Below, piece after piece: positions 1 to 24,259 of a stretch of DNA of 24,259 nucleotides. Positions within the stretch are counted from its first letter, which is position 1; every line of letters begins with the position of its first letter. Source of the stretch: a virus (taxonomy: Duplodnaviria; Heunggongvirae; Uroviricota; Caudoviricetes); the IMG/VR virus record IMGVR_UViG_3300042204_000022; one strand, 5' to 3'. The notes under the pieces are model-generated. The model was not told the DNA's origin. It saw nothing but the letters and a program-made list of their open reading frames with translations, and searched no databases. The translations under genes and the position numbers were made by a program.

Positions 1-127
1 GAGAGCGGCAAATAGAATTGCTTGTCGTTTGCTAAATTTGAAATCAATCTTTTTCATATCATCATTCTAAATTGAAACATAAAAAAAGTCAAGCATAAGC
101 TTGATTTTTCTTTTACACTCTTGCAGA
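1..127 (-). repeat. Exact inverted copy of 4576-4702 (promoter and first codons of the 4646 gene, ending at the TTGCAGA core)
   Basis: Base-by-base reverse complement; position n pairs with 4703-n; identity stops at base 128. Confidence 0.95.
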
Positions 128-139
128 GAGTGCAGTAAG
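116..139 (+). repeat. Recombination site S1: CACTC-TTGCAGA-GAGTGCAGTAAG (symmetric arms)
   Basis: Core 121-127 flanked by the inverted pentamers CACTC/GAGTG. Confidence 0.85.
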
Positions 140-491
140 CTCTTCGAAACTAGACCGCAGCACGTTTCCTGCGTCTCTAAACGACTCTAATTCAGCCTCG
201 TCAGGAAGCGTAAGCCGCTCCGTTACTATACCTGCAAAGGGTCTTGTTATTGCGTTTGGAGTTGTTAGAAAGGGGCCCTCAGGGGCACTGTCTGGGGTCA
301 TCAGTGCGTCAGGAACCGCATTCGTTAGTGGGGTAGGAACGTCATCGGCAAACGACCTTGGGTATGCAACAATTCCAGCAATTAGATTCATCAACGTGCA
401 GCCCGGTACGCTTACTGTATCCATGAACGGAACCGACAACCTCGCCATAGCGTTGACATTTATACCTGTTATTTCATCTACGTTCGCCTAG
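120..491 (+). CDS. Silent variable cassette A (no start codon): LAESAVSSSKLDRSTFPAS...LTFIPVISSTFA*
   Basis: Open frame from S1 to TAG 489-491. It is missing from the ORF track because it has no upstream start. Confidence 0.8.
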   Translation, partial: LAESAVSSSKLDRSTFPASLNDSNSASSGSVSRSVTIPAKGLVIAFGVVRKGPSGALSGVISASGTAFVSGVGTSSANDLGYATIPAIRFINVQPGTLTVSMNGTDNLAIALTFIPVISSTFA

Positions 492-518
492 TGTTGCACC
501 ACCTGCAAGAGCGTTGAA

Positions 519-833
519 CTAATCTACGTAAATAAACGACCCGTCGTCGAGCACTTGGTCGATCTTTTCGTCGCCAATATTCTTTAAGAGGGACTTAAAT
601 GTTTTTTCTACTTCAGTGCTATCGCTATTAGTTGTCCACACGAACATGGCAAACTTTTTATCGTTTTTTTCGTAGTTCTTTCCGTAAGAGTATATTGGTG
701 CTACGCTGCTCGATCTGACCAATATCCCGTTCTTAAGATATGGGTATCCGCCAGAGAAGGTTCTGACATACATTTCGTCTTTTCTTAGTGCGTGGCAAAG
801 ACCAACTTTATCGTGTTCTGCGTATTGTTTCAT
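519..833 (-). CDS. Hypothetical 104-aa passenger protein inside the inversion array
   Basis: ORF with a dedicated promoter directly upstream; no recognisable motif. Confidence 0.7.
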   Translation of the reverse strand: MKQYAEHDKVGLCHALRKDEMYVRTFSGGYPYLKNGILVRSSSVAPIYSYGKNYEKNDKKFAMFVWTTNSDSTEVEKTFKSLLKNIGDEKIDQVLDDGSFIYVD

Positions 834-839
834 ATACTA

Positions 840-868
840 ATTATACCAAAGCATTACCGTTTTGGCAA
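840..868 (-). promoter_or_regulatory. Sigma70 promoter TTGCCA-17-(TGG)TATAAT, 6 nt before ATG 833 (leaderless)
   Basis: -35 at 863-868, -10 at 840-845. Confidence 0.75.
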
Positions 869-873
869 ATCAA

Positions 874-897
874 CACTCTTGCAGATAATGGTGTAAC
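874..897 (+). repeat. Recombination site S2: CACTC-TTGCAGA-TAATGGTGTAAC
   Basis: Core 879-885; 872-897 is identical (26 bp) to 2736-2761. Confidence 0.85.
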
Positions 898-1210
898 AGC
901 CAATAAGATAGATTTTTCTACTATACAAAGTGGGTGGAATTTCGTGGTTGGAAGCGGGACCGCTAATTCAACAAAAACAATAACATTTAGCGACTCGTTT
1001 TCTGCTCCCCCACTGGTATTTATGTCAATGATTGGATATAAAACTGGATCTAACCCAACATCGCCAACCGATATAAACGCACCAGCGTCTTGGACGGTAG
1101 GAACGAACAATGTGACCTCAAACGATTTTCTAGCGTTCTATTCTCAAGCTAGTGGTACGCTCGCAACTAATGTGCGGATACTATTCTACTGGATAGCGAT
1201 TGGGAATTAA
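878..1210 (+). CDS. Silent variable cassette B, gp53-like/H-type-lectin-like tail-fibre C-terminal domain: LADNGVTANKIDFSTIQSGW...FYWIAIGN*
   Basis: In frame from S2. Motifs QSGW, TITFSDSF..PP.V and YWIAIG are typical of tail-fibre C-termini. The track start at 788 overlaps the opposite-strand gene and is unlikely. Confidence 0.8.
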   Translation, partial: LADNGVTANKIDFSTIQSGWNFVVGSGTANSTKTITFSDSFSAPPLVFMSMIGYKTGSNPTSPTDINAPASWTVGTNNVTSNDFLAFYSQASGTLATNVRILFYWIAIGN

Positions 1211-1215
1211 CCCCT

Positions 1216-1662
1216 TTTGCAGAGAGTGCAGTAACAAGATCAAAAATAGGTTCTTCGACATTTCCGAAGGTGCACGCCTACAGAGCTGCTGCTGTTAATT
1301 CAACTAATGGTTCTGGTAGTAAAATAGTATTTGATACAGAGACAATTGACACCCATAACGCTTACAGCACGTCTACTGGAGTTTTTACCGCGCCATACAC
1401 GGGAGACTACTTCATTAGCATCGGTGGTGGCAACACGGCTGCGACAAGTACTGTGATGTATTGGTACATAAAAAGAAACAGCACCACTATCAGACAAGGT
1501 ACTGTCTGGAATCCTTCGAACACTAACAATCGTCAAACATTAACGACCACAGTTTCATTAACTGCGTCAGACACTATTGAGTGTTGGTATGTAGGTGGTG
1601 GAGGTTCGGTTATCGCCGTAGGTCAAGAGAATCTATTTCTTGATATTAACTACTTACCTTAG
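1216..1662 (+). CDS. Silent variable cassette C, C1q/TNF-like domain: FAESAVTRSKIGSSTFPKVHAY...LDINYLP*
   Basis: In frame from S3; FDTETIDTHNAYSTSTGVFTAPYTGDYFI matches the C1q-like F..N...Y...TG.FTAP..G.Y.F pattern. Confidence 0.8.
   Translation, partial: FAESAVTRSKIGSSTFPKVHAYRAAAVNSTNGSGSKIVFDTETIDTHNAYSTSTGVFTAPYTGDYFISIGGGNTAATSTVMYWYIKRNSTTIRQGTVWNPSNTNNRQTLTTTVSLTASDTIECWYVGGGGSVIAVGQENLFLDINYLP
1217..1235 (+). repeat. Recombination site S3: TTGCAGA-GAGTGCAGTAAC
   Basis: Core begins 6 nt after the stop of cassette B. Confidence 0.85.
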
Positions 1663-2103
1663 TTAAATCAACTCAACCATAATAAATGGTTTAGTATTTG
1701 AAGCACTGATTGTTCCTGCATTACAGGCGATTGTTCCTGAACCAGATTGACGATATGCTGTAAGTTTATAGGTGTGTGAACCCGCAGACGGAGCGTCTAC
1801 GATTACCGACCAATATGCGTTATAGCCAAAAACATTAGGGTGAGCTAAGGTGTGAAAACCTAGATAGGTAGAACCTTCTTTGATGAATACACGAGATGTA
1901 TCACCAGAGCTTGTACTTGATAGCCATGTCTGAGCGGTGATACGTATCGAGCGTCCACCTGTCGGAATGCTCACCGTAATGCTTAGACCTGTTAGGTCTA
2001 CCTCTGTTGATGTGATACCGCCTTGGGTCGTCGAGGTTGTTGCGTAGCCTAAAAGTATTGCTCCTGGAGCGACCTTCGTGGCTGTCACTGCACTCTCTGC
2101 AAA
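1663..2103 (-). CDS. Silent variable cassette D: FAESAVTATKVAPGAILLGY...PFIMVELI*
   Basis: In frame from S4; its stop abuts the stop of cassette C; beta-rich, with a GSHTYKL motif. Confidence 0.8.
   Translation of the reverse strand, partial: FAESAVTATKVAPGAILLGYATTSTTQGGITSTEVDLTGLSITVSIPTGGRSIRITAQTWLSSTSSGDTSRVFIKEGSTYLGFHTLAHPNVFGYNAYWSVIVDAPSAGSHTYKLTAYRQSGSGTIACNAGTISASNTKPFIMVELI
2084..2102 (-). repeat. Recombination site S4: TTGCAGA-GAGTGCAGTGAC
   Basis: Core 2096-2102 on the minus strand. Confidence 0.85.
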
Positions 2104-2115
2104 AATGATTGCTTA

Positions 2116-2508
2116 TCAAGTACCAAATGCGACCCAAGTATAGAATAGCGTGTGACCAGCCGTGAAGTTAGCCCCCTGTCTTGTGATAACGACCTGAAAA
2201 CCTGTTGTTGACTCGTTATTCGCCGCAGCCTGCATGTTATCAATATAAGATGTTGACGTTCCTGGATATGCACCAGAACCACTTCCTGTCATTATGCCAC
2301 CCCCCGCTGTTACTAGTACGACGGGGAGACTCGTATACGGAGTCGGAAATGTCACAGACTCTGAAAGATTTGTTGCTGCCGCCCCGGCGATTCTCCCCCA
2401 GCCATACTGAATCTTGACGCTATTGGGGTTGGAGTTGGTGGTATCATATTGTCTCGCTATGAAAGTACCGAAATCGACTTTACTACCCGTTACAGCATTG
2501 TCTGCAAG
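2116..2508 (-). CDS. Silent variable cassette E, gp53-like tail-fibre C-terminal domain: LADNAVTGSKVDFGTF...IQYGWG...VTFPTPY...YTWVAFGT*
   Basis: In frame from S5 to TGA; shares motifs with cassette B. Confidence 0.8.
   Translation of the reverse strand, partial: LADNAVTGSKVDFGTFIARQYDTTNSNPNSVKIQYGWGRIAGAAATNLSESVTFPTPYTSLPVVLVTAGGGIMTGSGSGAYPGTSTSYIDNMQAAANNESTTGFQVVITRQGANFTAGHTLFYTWVAFGT
2489..2507 (-). repeat. Recombination site S5: TTGCAGA-CAATGCTGTAAC
   Basis: Core 2501-2507 on the minus strand; upstream arm is CTTTC. Confidence 0.8.
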
Positions 2509-2521
2509 AAAGTCAACCCCT

Positions 2522-2537
2522 ATTATGGTATAATAAA
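2522..2537 (+). promoter_or_regulatory. Extended -10 promoter ATTATGGTATAATAAA for the constant exon
   Basis: TGnTATAAT with no good -35; the 16-mer is identical to the one upstream of the portal gene (23121-23136, minus). Confidence 0.7.
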
Positions 2538-2603
2538 GTTAATGAATGTCCTCTTTTTGGACTAGAAAATAAAAGAAAAACACCCTCGGAGAATACAAAA
2601 AGC

Positions 2604-3191
2604 ATGGCATTACCAAACCCCGGAATGGACGCAGTACCGTTCACGCCACTTACAGCTGAATTTTTAGACGACATGATCGAGAATATCGAGTCTCTATCAG
2701 ATGGTACAGGGTTCGAAAATGGTGCAATTACCACGAACACTCTTGCAGATAATGGTGTAACGATAGATAAGATCGATAGTTCCGGCTATCCTAGGTTTAT
2801 TGCCAGCAAGAACGTAAGTCAGGGCGGAGCGACCACCGGGACAGTAATAGCATATCCCGCCAAAGAGCTTGACACACATAACGCGTACAGTACCGCTAAC
2901 TCAAGATTCACGGCGCCAATATCGGGTACGTACATGTTCATGGCCGGAGCATTCGCAAACGGTGCGGCCAATACTGGACTCATTATCAATATATCTAAAA
3001 ACGGAGTGGCACAATATCGCGGAGGAGACGGTGCTGGATCGGCATTCGAGAGAGGTTCAAATGTTGTGGCACTTGTTCAACTGTCCGCGGGCGACTATGT
3101 TGATGTTCGCATTCAGTATATAGCCGGAACCAGTAATATAGAGGGGTTCGCATCCCACAAATTCAGTGGGTTTATGGTATTCGGGTCGTAG
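2604..3191 (+). CDS. Expressed receptor-binding/tail-fibre protein: constant N-terminus (2604-2741) fused at S6 to cassette F (C1q-like)
   Basis: The only ORF in the array with an ATG and promoter ahead of a site; C-terminal DTHNAYSTANSRFTAPISGTYMF is a C1q-like motif shared with cassette C. Confidence 0.85.
   Translation: MALPNPGMDAVPFTPLTAEFLDDMIENIESLSDGTGFENGAITTNTLADNGVTIDKIDSSGYPRFIASKNVSQGGATTGTVIAYPAKELDTHNAYSTANSRFTAPISGTYMFMAGAFANGAANTGLIINISKNGVAQYRGGDGAGSAFERGSNVVALVQLSAGDYVDVRIQYIAGTSNIEGFASHKFSGFMVFGS
2738..2761 (+). repeat. Recombination site S6 (expression site): CACTC-TTGCAGA-TAATGGTGTAAC
   Basis: Core 2743-2749 inside codons T-L-A-D. Confidence 0.88.
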
Positions 3192-3194
3192 TCT

Positions 3195-3617
3195 TTTGCA
3201 GAGAGTGCAGTAACACGTTCTAAAATAGATTTTACTACCTTTGTTGGCTACTATACAAACATCAGTACAATCACTACAATTACAGCAGGGAACTTCAGTG
3301 GTACGTCAACTCGTTCAAGTCAATCCGCTACCATCCCAGCCAACTGTACTAGGGCGTTAATCGTTGCTACCGTTCGTCTACAGTCTCAGGGGGCGTCAGC
3401 GAATGACATGTCTTCTAGAATACAAGTAGGAGGAAGTGGAAATAGCACTGGTACTGGTGTTGTTACTGGAGTAGGGACATTTAACGGTAGTATGTCTACT
3501 ATGCTTGGAATACTCACTGTTTCTCCGGGTTCTAACACCTTTGATTTGGTTTGTACTGCTGTGTCAAGCGCCTCAGCTTCAAACTACACTTGTCTTGTTA
3601 TACCGTTACCAAGTTAA
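3195..3617 (+). CDS. Silent variable cassette G: FAESAVTRSKIDFTTFVGYY...CLVIPLPS*
   Basis: In frame from S7; includes the track ORF 3408-3617. Confidence 0.8.
   Translation, partial: FAESAVTRSKIDFTTFVGYYTNISTITTITAGNFSGTSTRSSQSATIPANCTRALIVATVRLQSQGASANDMSSRIQVGGSGNSTGTGVVTGVGTFNGSMSTMLGILTVSPGSNTFDLVCTAVSSASASNYTCLVIPLPS
3196..3214 (+). repeat. Recombination site S7: TTGCAGA-GAGTGCAGTAAC
   Basis: Core begins 4 nt after the stop of cassette F. Confidence 0.85.
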
Positions 3618-4144
3618 TCGTGTCCTAGAACGATAACACTTGAGTTTGCAGCAAAGTTGCCTGTTCCGCCAACGTTTACTATCTCAATACTACTAATCTG
3701 ATTTGATGAGTTCGCCCATTTGACAAGCAATTCGGCACGATCCGGAGCAGAGGCCGCACTAGACGGCGTACCAGTGAAGTTACCAAACCTCTGTACTGTT
3801 ATATTCTTTTCGTTCGTGGCAATATTCACGACATCTAATATTCCTCCCGCGAATGTATACGCAAACGCACCCGCTAAAGATGCTCTGTTTTGGCTAACCG
3901 ATGTACTATCGGCACCACCGTTTGTTGATATACGCACAGCATAGTTGTTGCCACTATCACCGTTGAGTCTAAATGCGTTTTCTACTGTTCCCCCTGTCGC
4001 GTGTATAGAGACATAAATACGTAGATATTTTTTCGGCGTGAATGACAATGCGATGCTTCCGCTGGTAGTGCCCAGAACTGTTCTACCAAGTTCCTCCCAC
4101 CATATTCCAGAGGTCTTACTAAAGGTTACTGCACTCTCTGCAAA
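3614..4144 (-). CDS. Silent variable cassette H: FAESAVTFSKTSGIWWEELGRTVL...VIVLGHD*
   Basis: In frame from S8; its stop shares the palindrome TTAA (3614-3617) with cassette G. Confidence 0.8.
   Translation of the reverse strand, partial: FAESAVTFSKTSGIWWEELGRTVLGTTSGSIALSFTPKKYLRIYVSIHATGGTVENAFRLNGDSGNNYAVRISTNGGADSTSVSQNRASLAGAFAYTFAGGILDVVNIATNEKNITVQRFGNFTGTPSSAASAPDRAELLVKWANSSNQISSIEIVNVGGTGNFAANSSVIVLGHD
4125..4143 (-). repeat. Recombination site S8: TTGCAGA-GAGTGCAGTAAC
   Basis: Core 4137-4143 on the minus strand. Confidence 0.85.
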
Positions 4145-4148
4145 AATG

Positions 4149-4583
4149 TTACAGCGGGATGACCGTTATTCTTCTGTCTAAGAAGTGACCAACACCAGCA
4201 TTGATTTTATATTGCATCTTGAAAGTTGTAGAACCTTGGTTAAGACCAGTCAAAAGAAATGTTGCCCCTATTCTACATCCAGCATTTGTTGTTACATTGT
4301 CTACTAAACGAGTCTGAACAGACAGGTTCTCTGCTGGAGCAATTGTATTCGCGCCACTAGCGACAAACCCTATAAAGTTGTTGGCAGTAGCTGTGTCACT
4401 CATTGTGCTTCCATAGAGGCAGACAAGTGCTAGCCCGTTAAGACCAATTGTCACAGTAACAGATGGACCTGTAGTTGCTAAGTCAACAAAAGAACCGACC
4501 GTAGAGGTGCTTTGCTGTGTGGCTACAAAAGCTGTAGTCGCGCCAGTATTGAGTTTTCTTGGCGTTATAACATTATCTGCAAG
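4149..4583 (-). CDS. Silent variable cassette I: LADNVITPRKLNTGATTAFV...RRITVIPL*
   Basis: In frame from S9; resembles cassette D (VDL.....VTV, GSTTFK). Confidence 0.8.
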   Translation of the reverse strand, partial: LADNVITPRKLNTGATTAFVATQQSTSTVGSFVDLATTGPSVTVTIGLNGLALVCLYGSTMSDTATANNFIGFVASGANTIAPAENLSVQTRLVDNVTTNAGCRIGATFLLTGLNQGSTTFKMQYKINAGVGHFLDRRITVIPL

Positions 4584-4587
4584 AGTG
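4564..4587 (-). repeat. Recombination site S9 (right boundary): CACTC-TTGCAGA-TAATGTTATAAC
   Basis: Core 4576-4582 on the minus strand. Confidence 0.85.
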
Positions 4588-4592
4588 TAAAA

Positions 4593-4622
4593 GAAAAATC
4601 AAGCTTATGCTTGACTTTTTTT
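4593..4622. terminator. Possible bidirectional intrinsic terminator or operator: A-tract TCAAGC-TTAT-GCTTGA T-tract
   Basis: 6-bp stem at 4599-4614 followed by T-runs on both strands; overlaps the -35 of the 4646 promoter. Confidence 0.45.
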
Positions 4623-4639
4623 ATGTTTCAATTTAGAAT
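4611..4639 (+). promoter_or_regulatory. Sigma70 promoter TTGACT-17-TAGAAT, 6 nt before ATG 4646 (leaderless)
   Basis: -35 at 4611-4616, -10 at 4634-4639. Confidence 0.75.
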
Positions 4640-4645
4640 GATGAT

Positions 4646-5185
4646 ATGAAAAAGATTGATTTCAAATTTAGCAAACGACAAGCAATTCTATTTGCCGCTC
4701 TCATAGCTCTCACAGGCTTCGGAGCATGGTCAGCGAACACTTTATCGTCTTCTGGGCCACAAGCGTCTGTAGATAGCTTAAAACACGTCACAGAGCATGT
4801 TTCTGACGTGCCGTCTAGTGTAGAACCAGAAATTGCTGATAATACGGTCGTAAACGTCGCTCCCGCTACGCAAGAAGTCGCACCTGAACCAAAACCCGCT
4901 GAAGCACCAGCACCAACCGTCTATGAAAAGTACGGGGTGAGCGAATCTATCGTTCAGAAATTTGAATCATACTATCCTACCTACGCAAGTCAGAACAAAG
5001 ACTTGTTCGTATCAGATGTCAGTAAGGTTGTATCTGCTGTCGGCGAAGATAATGCTGTGCGTGTTATAGAGACTCATGCGAATAAGACTGGGGTGAACGG
5101 CACTACTACCGCCGAGAAGAACTCATTCATGAGGCTTCATCTCACCTACGGAATCTCTTTTGAGCCTTGGTCTACTGTGTTGTAG
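4646..5185 (+). CDS. Moron-like membrane-anchored or exported protein
   Basis: Basic N-terminus plus hydrophobic segment (AILFAALIALTGFGAW), Pro/Ala-rich linker, own promoter, antisense to the tail operon. Confidence 0.7.
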   Translation: MKKIDFKFSKRQAILFAALIALTGFGAWSANTLSSSGPQASVDSLKHVTEHVSDVPSSVEPEIADNTVVNVAPATQEVAPEPKPAEAPAPTVYEKYGVSESIVQKFESYYPTYASQNKDLFVSDVSKVVSAVGEDNAVRVIETHANKTGVNGTTTAEKNSFMRLHLTYGISFEPWSTVL

Positions 5186-24027: not shown

Positions 24028-24182
24028 GCCTTACATAGTTACTTGAGGAAAAAATTTGTGGAGGGTTGCTAGAGCCCACCCAGCCACCAAAGATGAACAC
24101 GTTTCACACTTTTTGTCAAATGTCAATAGCAATATTAGGACATCAATCATATTTAATTGCAAATGTCAAGGGGGTTATGCCT

Positions 24183-24253
24183 ACGCTATATATAGGGGGT
24201 CGGGGGGTATATATAAGGTATGAGCACGCTATATATAGTGTCACGCTATATAT
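24183..24253 (+). repeat. Three direct copies of ACGCTATATAT around G-tracts
   Basis: Copies at 24183-24193, 24226-24236 and 24243-24253. Confidence 0.8.
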
Positions 24254-24259
24254 GGTGTA

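Follow-up and report, generated by a model that had tools for sequence, protein, structure and literature searches.

Layout of the array and its flanks

The window (i.e., the whole stretch of DNA analyzed, 24,259 nucleotides) represents the structural half of a tailed phage, with the portal, tape measure, and tail genes on the minus strand. A look-up of three of its proteins retrieved the same phage, 100% identical, from other assemblies; no relative was found among the GTDB genomes scanned. One match (L013) was rejected as due to chance. The order of the array and its flanks was taken from an 88-kb contig of the identical phage (L049), where the tail operon is followed by a gene of 179 aa, cassette A, a passenger gene, cassettes B, C, D, and E, an expression module, cassettes F, G, H, and I, a tyrosine recombinase gene, and lysis genes. 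The recombinase gene at the true other flank is missing from the window. Positions 1–127 are an exact reverse copy of 4576–4702 and are best read as an assembly-graph overlap (k = 127) that records two junctions, rather than as the true left flank; the second of these junctions joins the flank to cassette A. The alternative of a genuine inverted repeat of 127 bp around the array was rejected, since the other flank is the recombinase gene. The fixed flank (4583–5185, plus strand) contains a hairpin (4599–4614), a promoter motif (4611–4639), and the 179-aa gene, which converges on the tail operon. The last gene of this operon stops at 5172, which bears out the original prediction that the operon ends 2.4 kb away, as measured from site S6. 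The hairpin region beside the terminal site (4590–4614) has T-runs on both strands and could insulate the array against flanking transcription.

The expression module (2508–2742, plus strand) measures 235 bp from core to core and comprises the left half of site S5, a promoter, a leader, and a constant exon. The original prediction had placed a promoter at 2522–2537 in a segment of about 235 bp; the length was borne out, and an extended −10 motif (TGn-TATAAT), the predicted promoter, lies inside that interval at 2526–2534 on the plus strand. No −35 box matched for this motif, which is thus absent from the sigma-70 scan. The constant exon (2604–2744, plus strand) spans 47 codons from the ATG at 2604, preceded by GGAG at 2588–2591, and its reading frame runs through S6 into cassette F to give a protein of 195 aa. 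As had been proposed, promoter and exon lie between S5 (2489–2507, minus strand) and S6 (2743–2761, plus strand, inside the expressed gene), two perfect matches to the site pattern that stand back to back, with five cassettes upstream of the module and four downstream. On the minus strand of the module, a further constant exon was considered and rejected, given only 11 open codons and no start.

Upstream of the module lie cassettes A (123–491, plus strand), B (881–1210, plus strand, H-type lectin match), C (1219–1662, plus strand, C1q/BclA-type), D (1663–2100, minus strand), and E (2116–2505, minus strand, 129 codons, weak H-type lectin match). Downstream lie the expressed cassette F (2745–3191, plus strand), with a C1q-type domain (Pfam PF00386, E 7e-9), G (3198–3617, plus strand), H (3614–4141, minus strand), and I (4149–4580, minus strand, weak PB4 spike match). 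Among the nine sites and their cassettes, a nearby exon started by ATG occurs only at S6; for the site at 879, a single GTG lies in frame 31 codons upstream, antisense to the passenger gene. No in-frame start was found upstream of cassette E, and this silent cassette is expressible only via recombination at S5. The cassettes upstream of the module are all open for 109–147 codons, and comparison suggests that their intactness fits their use.

The N-terminus encoded by the constant exon is common to 68 homologous proteins, the C-termini of which are many and different. In the predicted structure of the constant|F protein (pTM 0.64), a helix leads into a C1q-type head, and the model aligns with C1q domains at TM 0.85–0.88 depending on the target; the protein had no match in the annotated phage collection. 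Given the matches to C1q, BclA, H-lectin, and PB4-spike-like domains, and the tail-module position in relatives, the product is likely a small receptor-binding tail protein.

The passenger gene lies inside the array on the minus strand (519–868), encoding 104 aa at 519–833 with a promoter motif at 840–868. With this motif, it sits between two half-sites (490–897) as a second internal module. The gene accompanies the constant-exon gene even in array-less phages, and in two relatives (L063 3970–4329, L066 7420–7780) it abuts the fixed flank, with a site core overlapping its −35 box.

Recombination sites and the adjacent recombinase

Nine matches to a 19-bp pattern, TTGCAGAnAnTGnnGTAAC, occur in the window, all within 121–4582, compared with 0.04 expected from a shuffling control, a generous comparison in that the pattern was derived from the same sites. 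Each consists of the core TTGCAGA and a 12-bp arm, and each opens a reading frame of 109–175 codons in the same phase. The terminal sites are S1 (121–139, cassette A) and S9 (4564–4582, cassette I); between them lie the sites of cassettes B (879–897), C (1217–1235), and D (2084–2102), S5, which opens cassette E (core at 2501–2507), S6, and the sites of cassettes G (3196–3214) and H (4125–4143). A degenerate site near the passenger gene (490–508) is perfect and cassette-bearing in L063 and L073. When 32 sites from 10 loci were tallied column by column, the core was invariant, positions were fixed also where changes would be synonymous, and the sites had a 7-bp core flanked by a variable left arm and a conserved right arm of 12 bp. 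The left arm ends in CACTC at the terminal, S6, and passenger-gene sites, making these partly symmetric; S5 and the cassette-end sites lack this ending.

These observations bear on whether the repeats are merely a conserved protein motif serving homologous module exchange, or the internal position of the module an assembly chimera. Related proteins (L012, P0025, P0027) do contain tandem copies of the motif in which the site lies. However, synonymous positions are fixed, the cassettes lack starts, the switch at the junctions falls precisely on the core, the array has a recombinase beside it, and independent assemblies of the phage agree on the layout. Such explanations are largely refuted and we regard them as highly improbable; a chimera of two strains was also considered and rejected.

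The same right-right-left-left layout is found in all three four-cassette blocks (window 879–2507 and 2743–4582; L001 4396–5757), where segments holding a single cassette carry one arm type and segments holding two carry another. The layout and arm types may point to block-wise gain or to preferred states.

The recombinase gene (L049 12056–12907) encodes 274–283 aa and begins 77–104 nt from the terminal site. Its product matches the tyrosine recombinase domain (PF00589, E 5e-32), with XerC/D-like matches falling below curated cut-offs, and retains the catalytic residues R137, K158, H221, and R224 together with the GH...Y motif. The recombinase is intact and, going by its length and family matches, armless. 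The closest matches in the phage collection were 24–29% identical, and a scan of viral contigs with the recombinase returned nothing.

In some relatives, the 5′ part of the recombinase gene has been lost at a join with array sequence (L001 3565–3760; L063 1687–2220, also L064 and L073). The truncation in L001 falls exactly at a site core, and the join in L063 also involves site-like sequence. In these two independent lineages, the array would be frozen unless the enzyme comes in trans.

We consider it probable that the locus is a nine-cassette shufflon with an adjacent recombinase, a 235-bp module bounded by two sites, and an ancestral promoter that permitted the internal position of the module. 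The armless tyrosine recombinase would act on the asymmetric 19-bp sites, the promoter in the module would be active, and the product would bind a receptor. Inversions with one end on each side of the module would turn the module over, while those using S6 would fuse a new tip onto the constant exon. When inversions were modeled starting from F, tips E, D, H, and I were reachable in one step and A, B, C, and G in two; only F, G, H, and I were reachable when module-spanning inversions were disallowed, and E was unreachable without S5.

Rearrangement in this strain and in sister phages

Junctions in contigs of the same strain were compared at both ends of the array. The flank bearing the 179-aa gene was joined to cassette A in most contigs and to cassette I in the window and L054, and one sample (3300042207) contained both arrangements (L054, L059). 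The terminal junctions present in this strain were thus three (flank|A, flank|I, and recombinase|I), and a single sample contained two of them. Strand exchange at the two outermost sites is thereby demonstrated for this strain, and its simplest explanation is an inversion that takes in all 4.46 kb of the array, promoter and constant exon included. Recombinase|A, the reciprocal junction, was absent from the same-strain contigs, a set that includes no recombinase-flank contig in the second orientation.

This missing junction gives some weight to a different account, in which flank|I arose by exchange between sister genomes (flank-array-flank molecules) or marks two long-lived lineages, with the shufflon nearly frozen here. 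The ends of one contig (L051, window 98–4588) point to edges for flank|A, flank|I, and recombinase|I and to none for recombinase|A: it carries 30 nt of the flank plus a core at the A end, but no more than the 6 nt that are shared at the I end. This asymmetry suggests that the recombinase|A edge is missing from those graphs. However, a minor edge can be removed by graph pruning, the recombinase is intact, and the module occurs in both orientations relative to the flanks across strains. We regard this account as rather unlikely.

Inside the array, no rearrangement was detected. Every same-strain contig covering them carried constant|F and S5|E, and neither constant|E nor S5|F was found in the same-strain assemblies, which drop rare variants. 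Internal junctions were invariant in all same-strain assemblies fetched, and a 4491-nt contig common to three samples crossed all the internal sites without a break. The original prediction held that flipping the S5–S6 segment would switch expression from cassette F to E. This is feasible on paper, given that an in silico flip yields an open constant|E protein of 176 aa, and a sister phage has the arrangement; however, constant|E was in no same-strain contig. Flips of the module alone would still occur in this strain on our reading, though, if so, rarely.

Comparison with sister phages extends this picture. The module, cores included, is identical at 248 of 249 positions in L062, L063, and L073, and beyond the sites on both sides the homology gives way to unrelated cassettes. 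The left half of S5 is joined to other cassettes in L062 and in L063/L073, and the cassettes at both S5 and S6 differ between lineages. Such different partners at the two sites across strains indicate that both are exchange points. In L062, the constant exon is fused to an E-like cassette, followed by the far site of E; from the constant exon to this site, the sequence matches the in silico flip product at 397 of 430 nt. Among the proteins of sister phages, P0002 and P0070 are E-like fusions to the constant exon and P0010 and P0071 are G-like ones (92–93% identity in each case); L063 and L073 express a G-like cassette. The contig carrying constant|E belongs to another strain (its E is 92% identical), so E could have moved there by another route.

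The quiet interior could alternatively mean that S5 is a scar or weak site, such that the upstream cassettes came in through a rare recombination event, intermolecular or off-target, at a cryptic half-site ahead of the promoter; there would be no self-flipping module today, and only the stronger CACTC sites, mainly the terminal pair, would be used. We judge this unlikely. It would account for the lack of internal rearrangement in same-strain assemblies, the lack of CACTC in the left arm of S5, and the off-target joins into the recombinase gene in L001 and L063, and it accords with the condition of S5 in relatives (four lineages lack it, L001 has it in degenerate form, and L069 retains a head-to-head remnant). 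However, three lineages carry three different perfect cassette arms at S5, and cassette E is intact. Moreover, S6 has CACTC yet is equally invariant in this strain, and the cassette-end sites lack it yet G-like cassettes are expressed in sister phages.

The relatives also inform how the module came to lie inside the array. Among the eight site-bearing lineages fetched, the left half of S5 was present in four (with an intact cassette in two, as a remnant in L069, and degenerate in L001) and absent in L065, L066/67, L074, and L075; this absence indicates that the internal position is dispensable. Half of these relatives have their constant part outside the array. Compared by sequence, the relatives form a series from no array (L002, L004, L005, L010) through arrays of two cassettes that leave the constant part outside (L065, L066) and three or four cassettes (L075, also with the constant part outside, and L001) to two-sided arrays with the constant part inside (L062, L063, this phage). 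In a comparison of the kind originally suggested, the gene with the same N-terminus proved to be, in L002, L005, and L010, a single gene without sites that follows the tail genes.

The promoter motif is kept upstream of the gene in nine relatives (L001, L004, L010, L062, L063, L065, L066, L069, L074), 80–120 nt from it in array-bearing and array-less (L004, L010) relatives alike, and it is present too where the constant part lies outside the array. Several other genes of the phage are preceded by the same extended −10 motif. The supposed tie between the promoter and the internal layout was therefore not upheld; rather, the conservation supports an ancestral promoter, apparently older than the array, that permitted the internal layout and did not evolve for it. 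In the window, L001, L062, L063, L065, L069, L074, and L075, the gene faces the tail operon, and in L049 and L066 it faces away; a convergent 179-aa gene or its homologue always separates the two. With both orientations found across strains and the motif conserved, comparison supports the idea that expression from the predicted promoter would be independent of orientation and of the tail operon. We propose that a promoter inherited from array-less ancestors rendered orientation neutral; the module could thus come to lie internally, and the array could expand to either side of it.

We lean slightly towards a reading in which the promoter and constant exon form an actively invertible unit in a two-sided array, derived from a Rin-like one-sided layout by recent gain of a second half-site upstream of the promoter, with living intermediates among the sister phages (no array, two cassettes, four cassettes, two-sided) and trading of cassettes between them at the same sites, and as a first for phage tail-tip shufflons. 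Near-identical cassettes occur at differing array positions, i.e., in L062 (775–1151), L063 (3155–3531), and P0009; in L001 (5435–5757), L069 (8140–8462), and P0021; and in window cassette D and L069 (8476). Their sequences suggest trading of cassettes between phages. In L069 (7870–7910), two cores and a 6-nt remnant separate the passenger-gene half-site from the S5 half-site that faces it, as though the entire B–E block were absent or had been removed.

Relationship to known inversion systems

The Rin shufflon of Bifidobacterium prophages holds variable cassettes between a constant gene and the invertase (PMC6109161). Like Rin, this array is a phage system near tail genes, with an adjacent armless tyrosine recombinase, short asymmetric sites with rearrangement seen at them, and a constant N-terminus joined to one of several dissimilar C-terminal tips encoded by start-less cassettes. 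Unlike Rin, it has its constant part and promoter inside the invertible DNA, as do L062 and L063, with nine cassettes distributed on both sides and a passenger gene; its 19-bp sites also differ in sequence from the 11-bp rix (PMC6109161).

The internal position is known from mollicutes. In the mba locus of Ureaplasma parvum and U. urealyticum, a promoter and conserved N-terminal domain lie amid inverted sites and are proposed to flip between variable domains (PMC3511179); this locus shares with the array an adjacent Xer-like recombinase and silent domains on both sides (PMC3511179). Tyrosine-recombinase inversions likewise bring a single promoter to silent 3′ ends in Mycoplasma pulmonis vsa and M. 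agalactiae vpma (PMC2268961, PMC4534519), and in vsa the promoter moves with the first 714 nt of coding sequence (PMC2268961). The array has the layout of mba and vsa, i.e., a single promoter and constant exon, inverted sites, and silent domains on both sides. In contrast, mba encodes a chromosomal surface lipoprotein involved in immune evasion, with tandem-repeat variable domains and a 25-bp site, and no homology is implied; crossover in vpma falls upstream of the start codon, and vsa and vpma are bacterial antigens rather than phage proteins. Our verdict is that the array is a Rin-type phage shufflon with an internal expression unit like those of Ureaplasma mba and Mycoplasma vsa, the likeness being one of layout.

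Other systems share some of these features. In plasmid R64, the constant part of pilV lies outside the invertible DNA, and Rci is longer than the recombinase of this phage. The constant part also lies outside in the Gin, Cin, and Min systems, where it is transcribed from the tail operon. R64 Rci/sfx nonetheless resembles the array in its tyrosine recombinase, many-site inversion, and C-terminal swapping (PMC4176322; PMC11852207), and the anatomy of its sfx site matches (7-bp core, conserved 12-bp right arm, variable left arm; PMC4176322). In contrast, its core sequence differs and its target is a pilus adhesin, pilV, on an IncI-type plasmid, whereas this array lies in a phage structural module with portal and tape measure genes. 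p15B Min, Mu Gin, and P1 Cin similarly switch phage tail tips by inversion; however, their recombinases are serine enzymes (PMC6109161), whereas that of this phage is a tyrosine recombinase.

The original prediction that the layout departs from systems with an outside constant part therefore stands for phage shufflons and fails in general, given Ureaplasma mba (PMC3511179). A literature search of limited coverage, and hence weak as evidence, found no phage shufflon with this layout; the internal position is apparently undescribed for phage tail-tip shufflons, and the principle already known from mollicutes. With the principle known, what is gained is a variant together with a test system: a phage that converges on the layout mollicutes use for antigenic variation, and sister phages ranging, in a series of a kind seldom available, from an ordinary tail gene up to a two-sided switch with nine tips. 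The locus also adds a new pairing of recombinase and site in which site use is strongly uneven, the terminal pair being active and the internal pairs quiet. This bears on a question raised by Rin, namely how armless tyrosine recombinases choose partners and avoid deletions.

The far end of the window (24060–24259), with its repeated TATATATAG tracts and a run of G, resembles a genome terminus or a packaging region.
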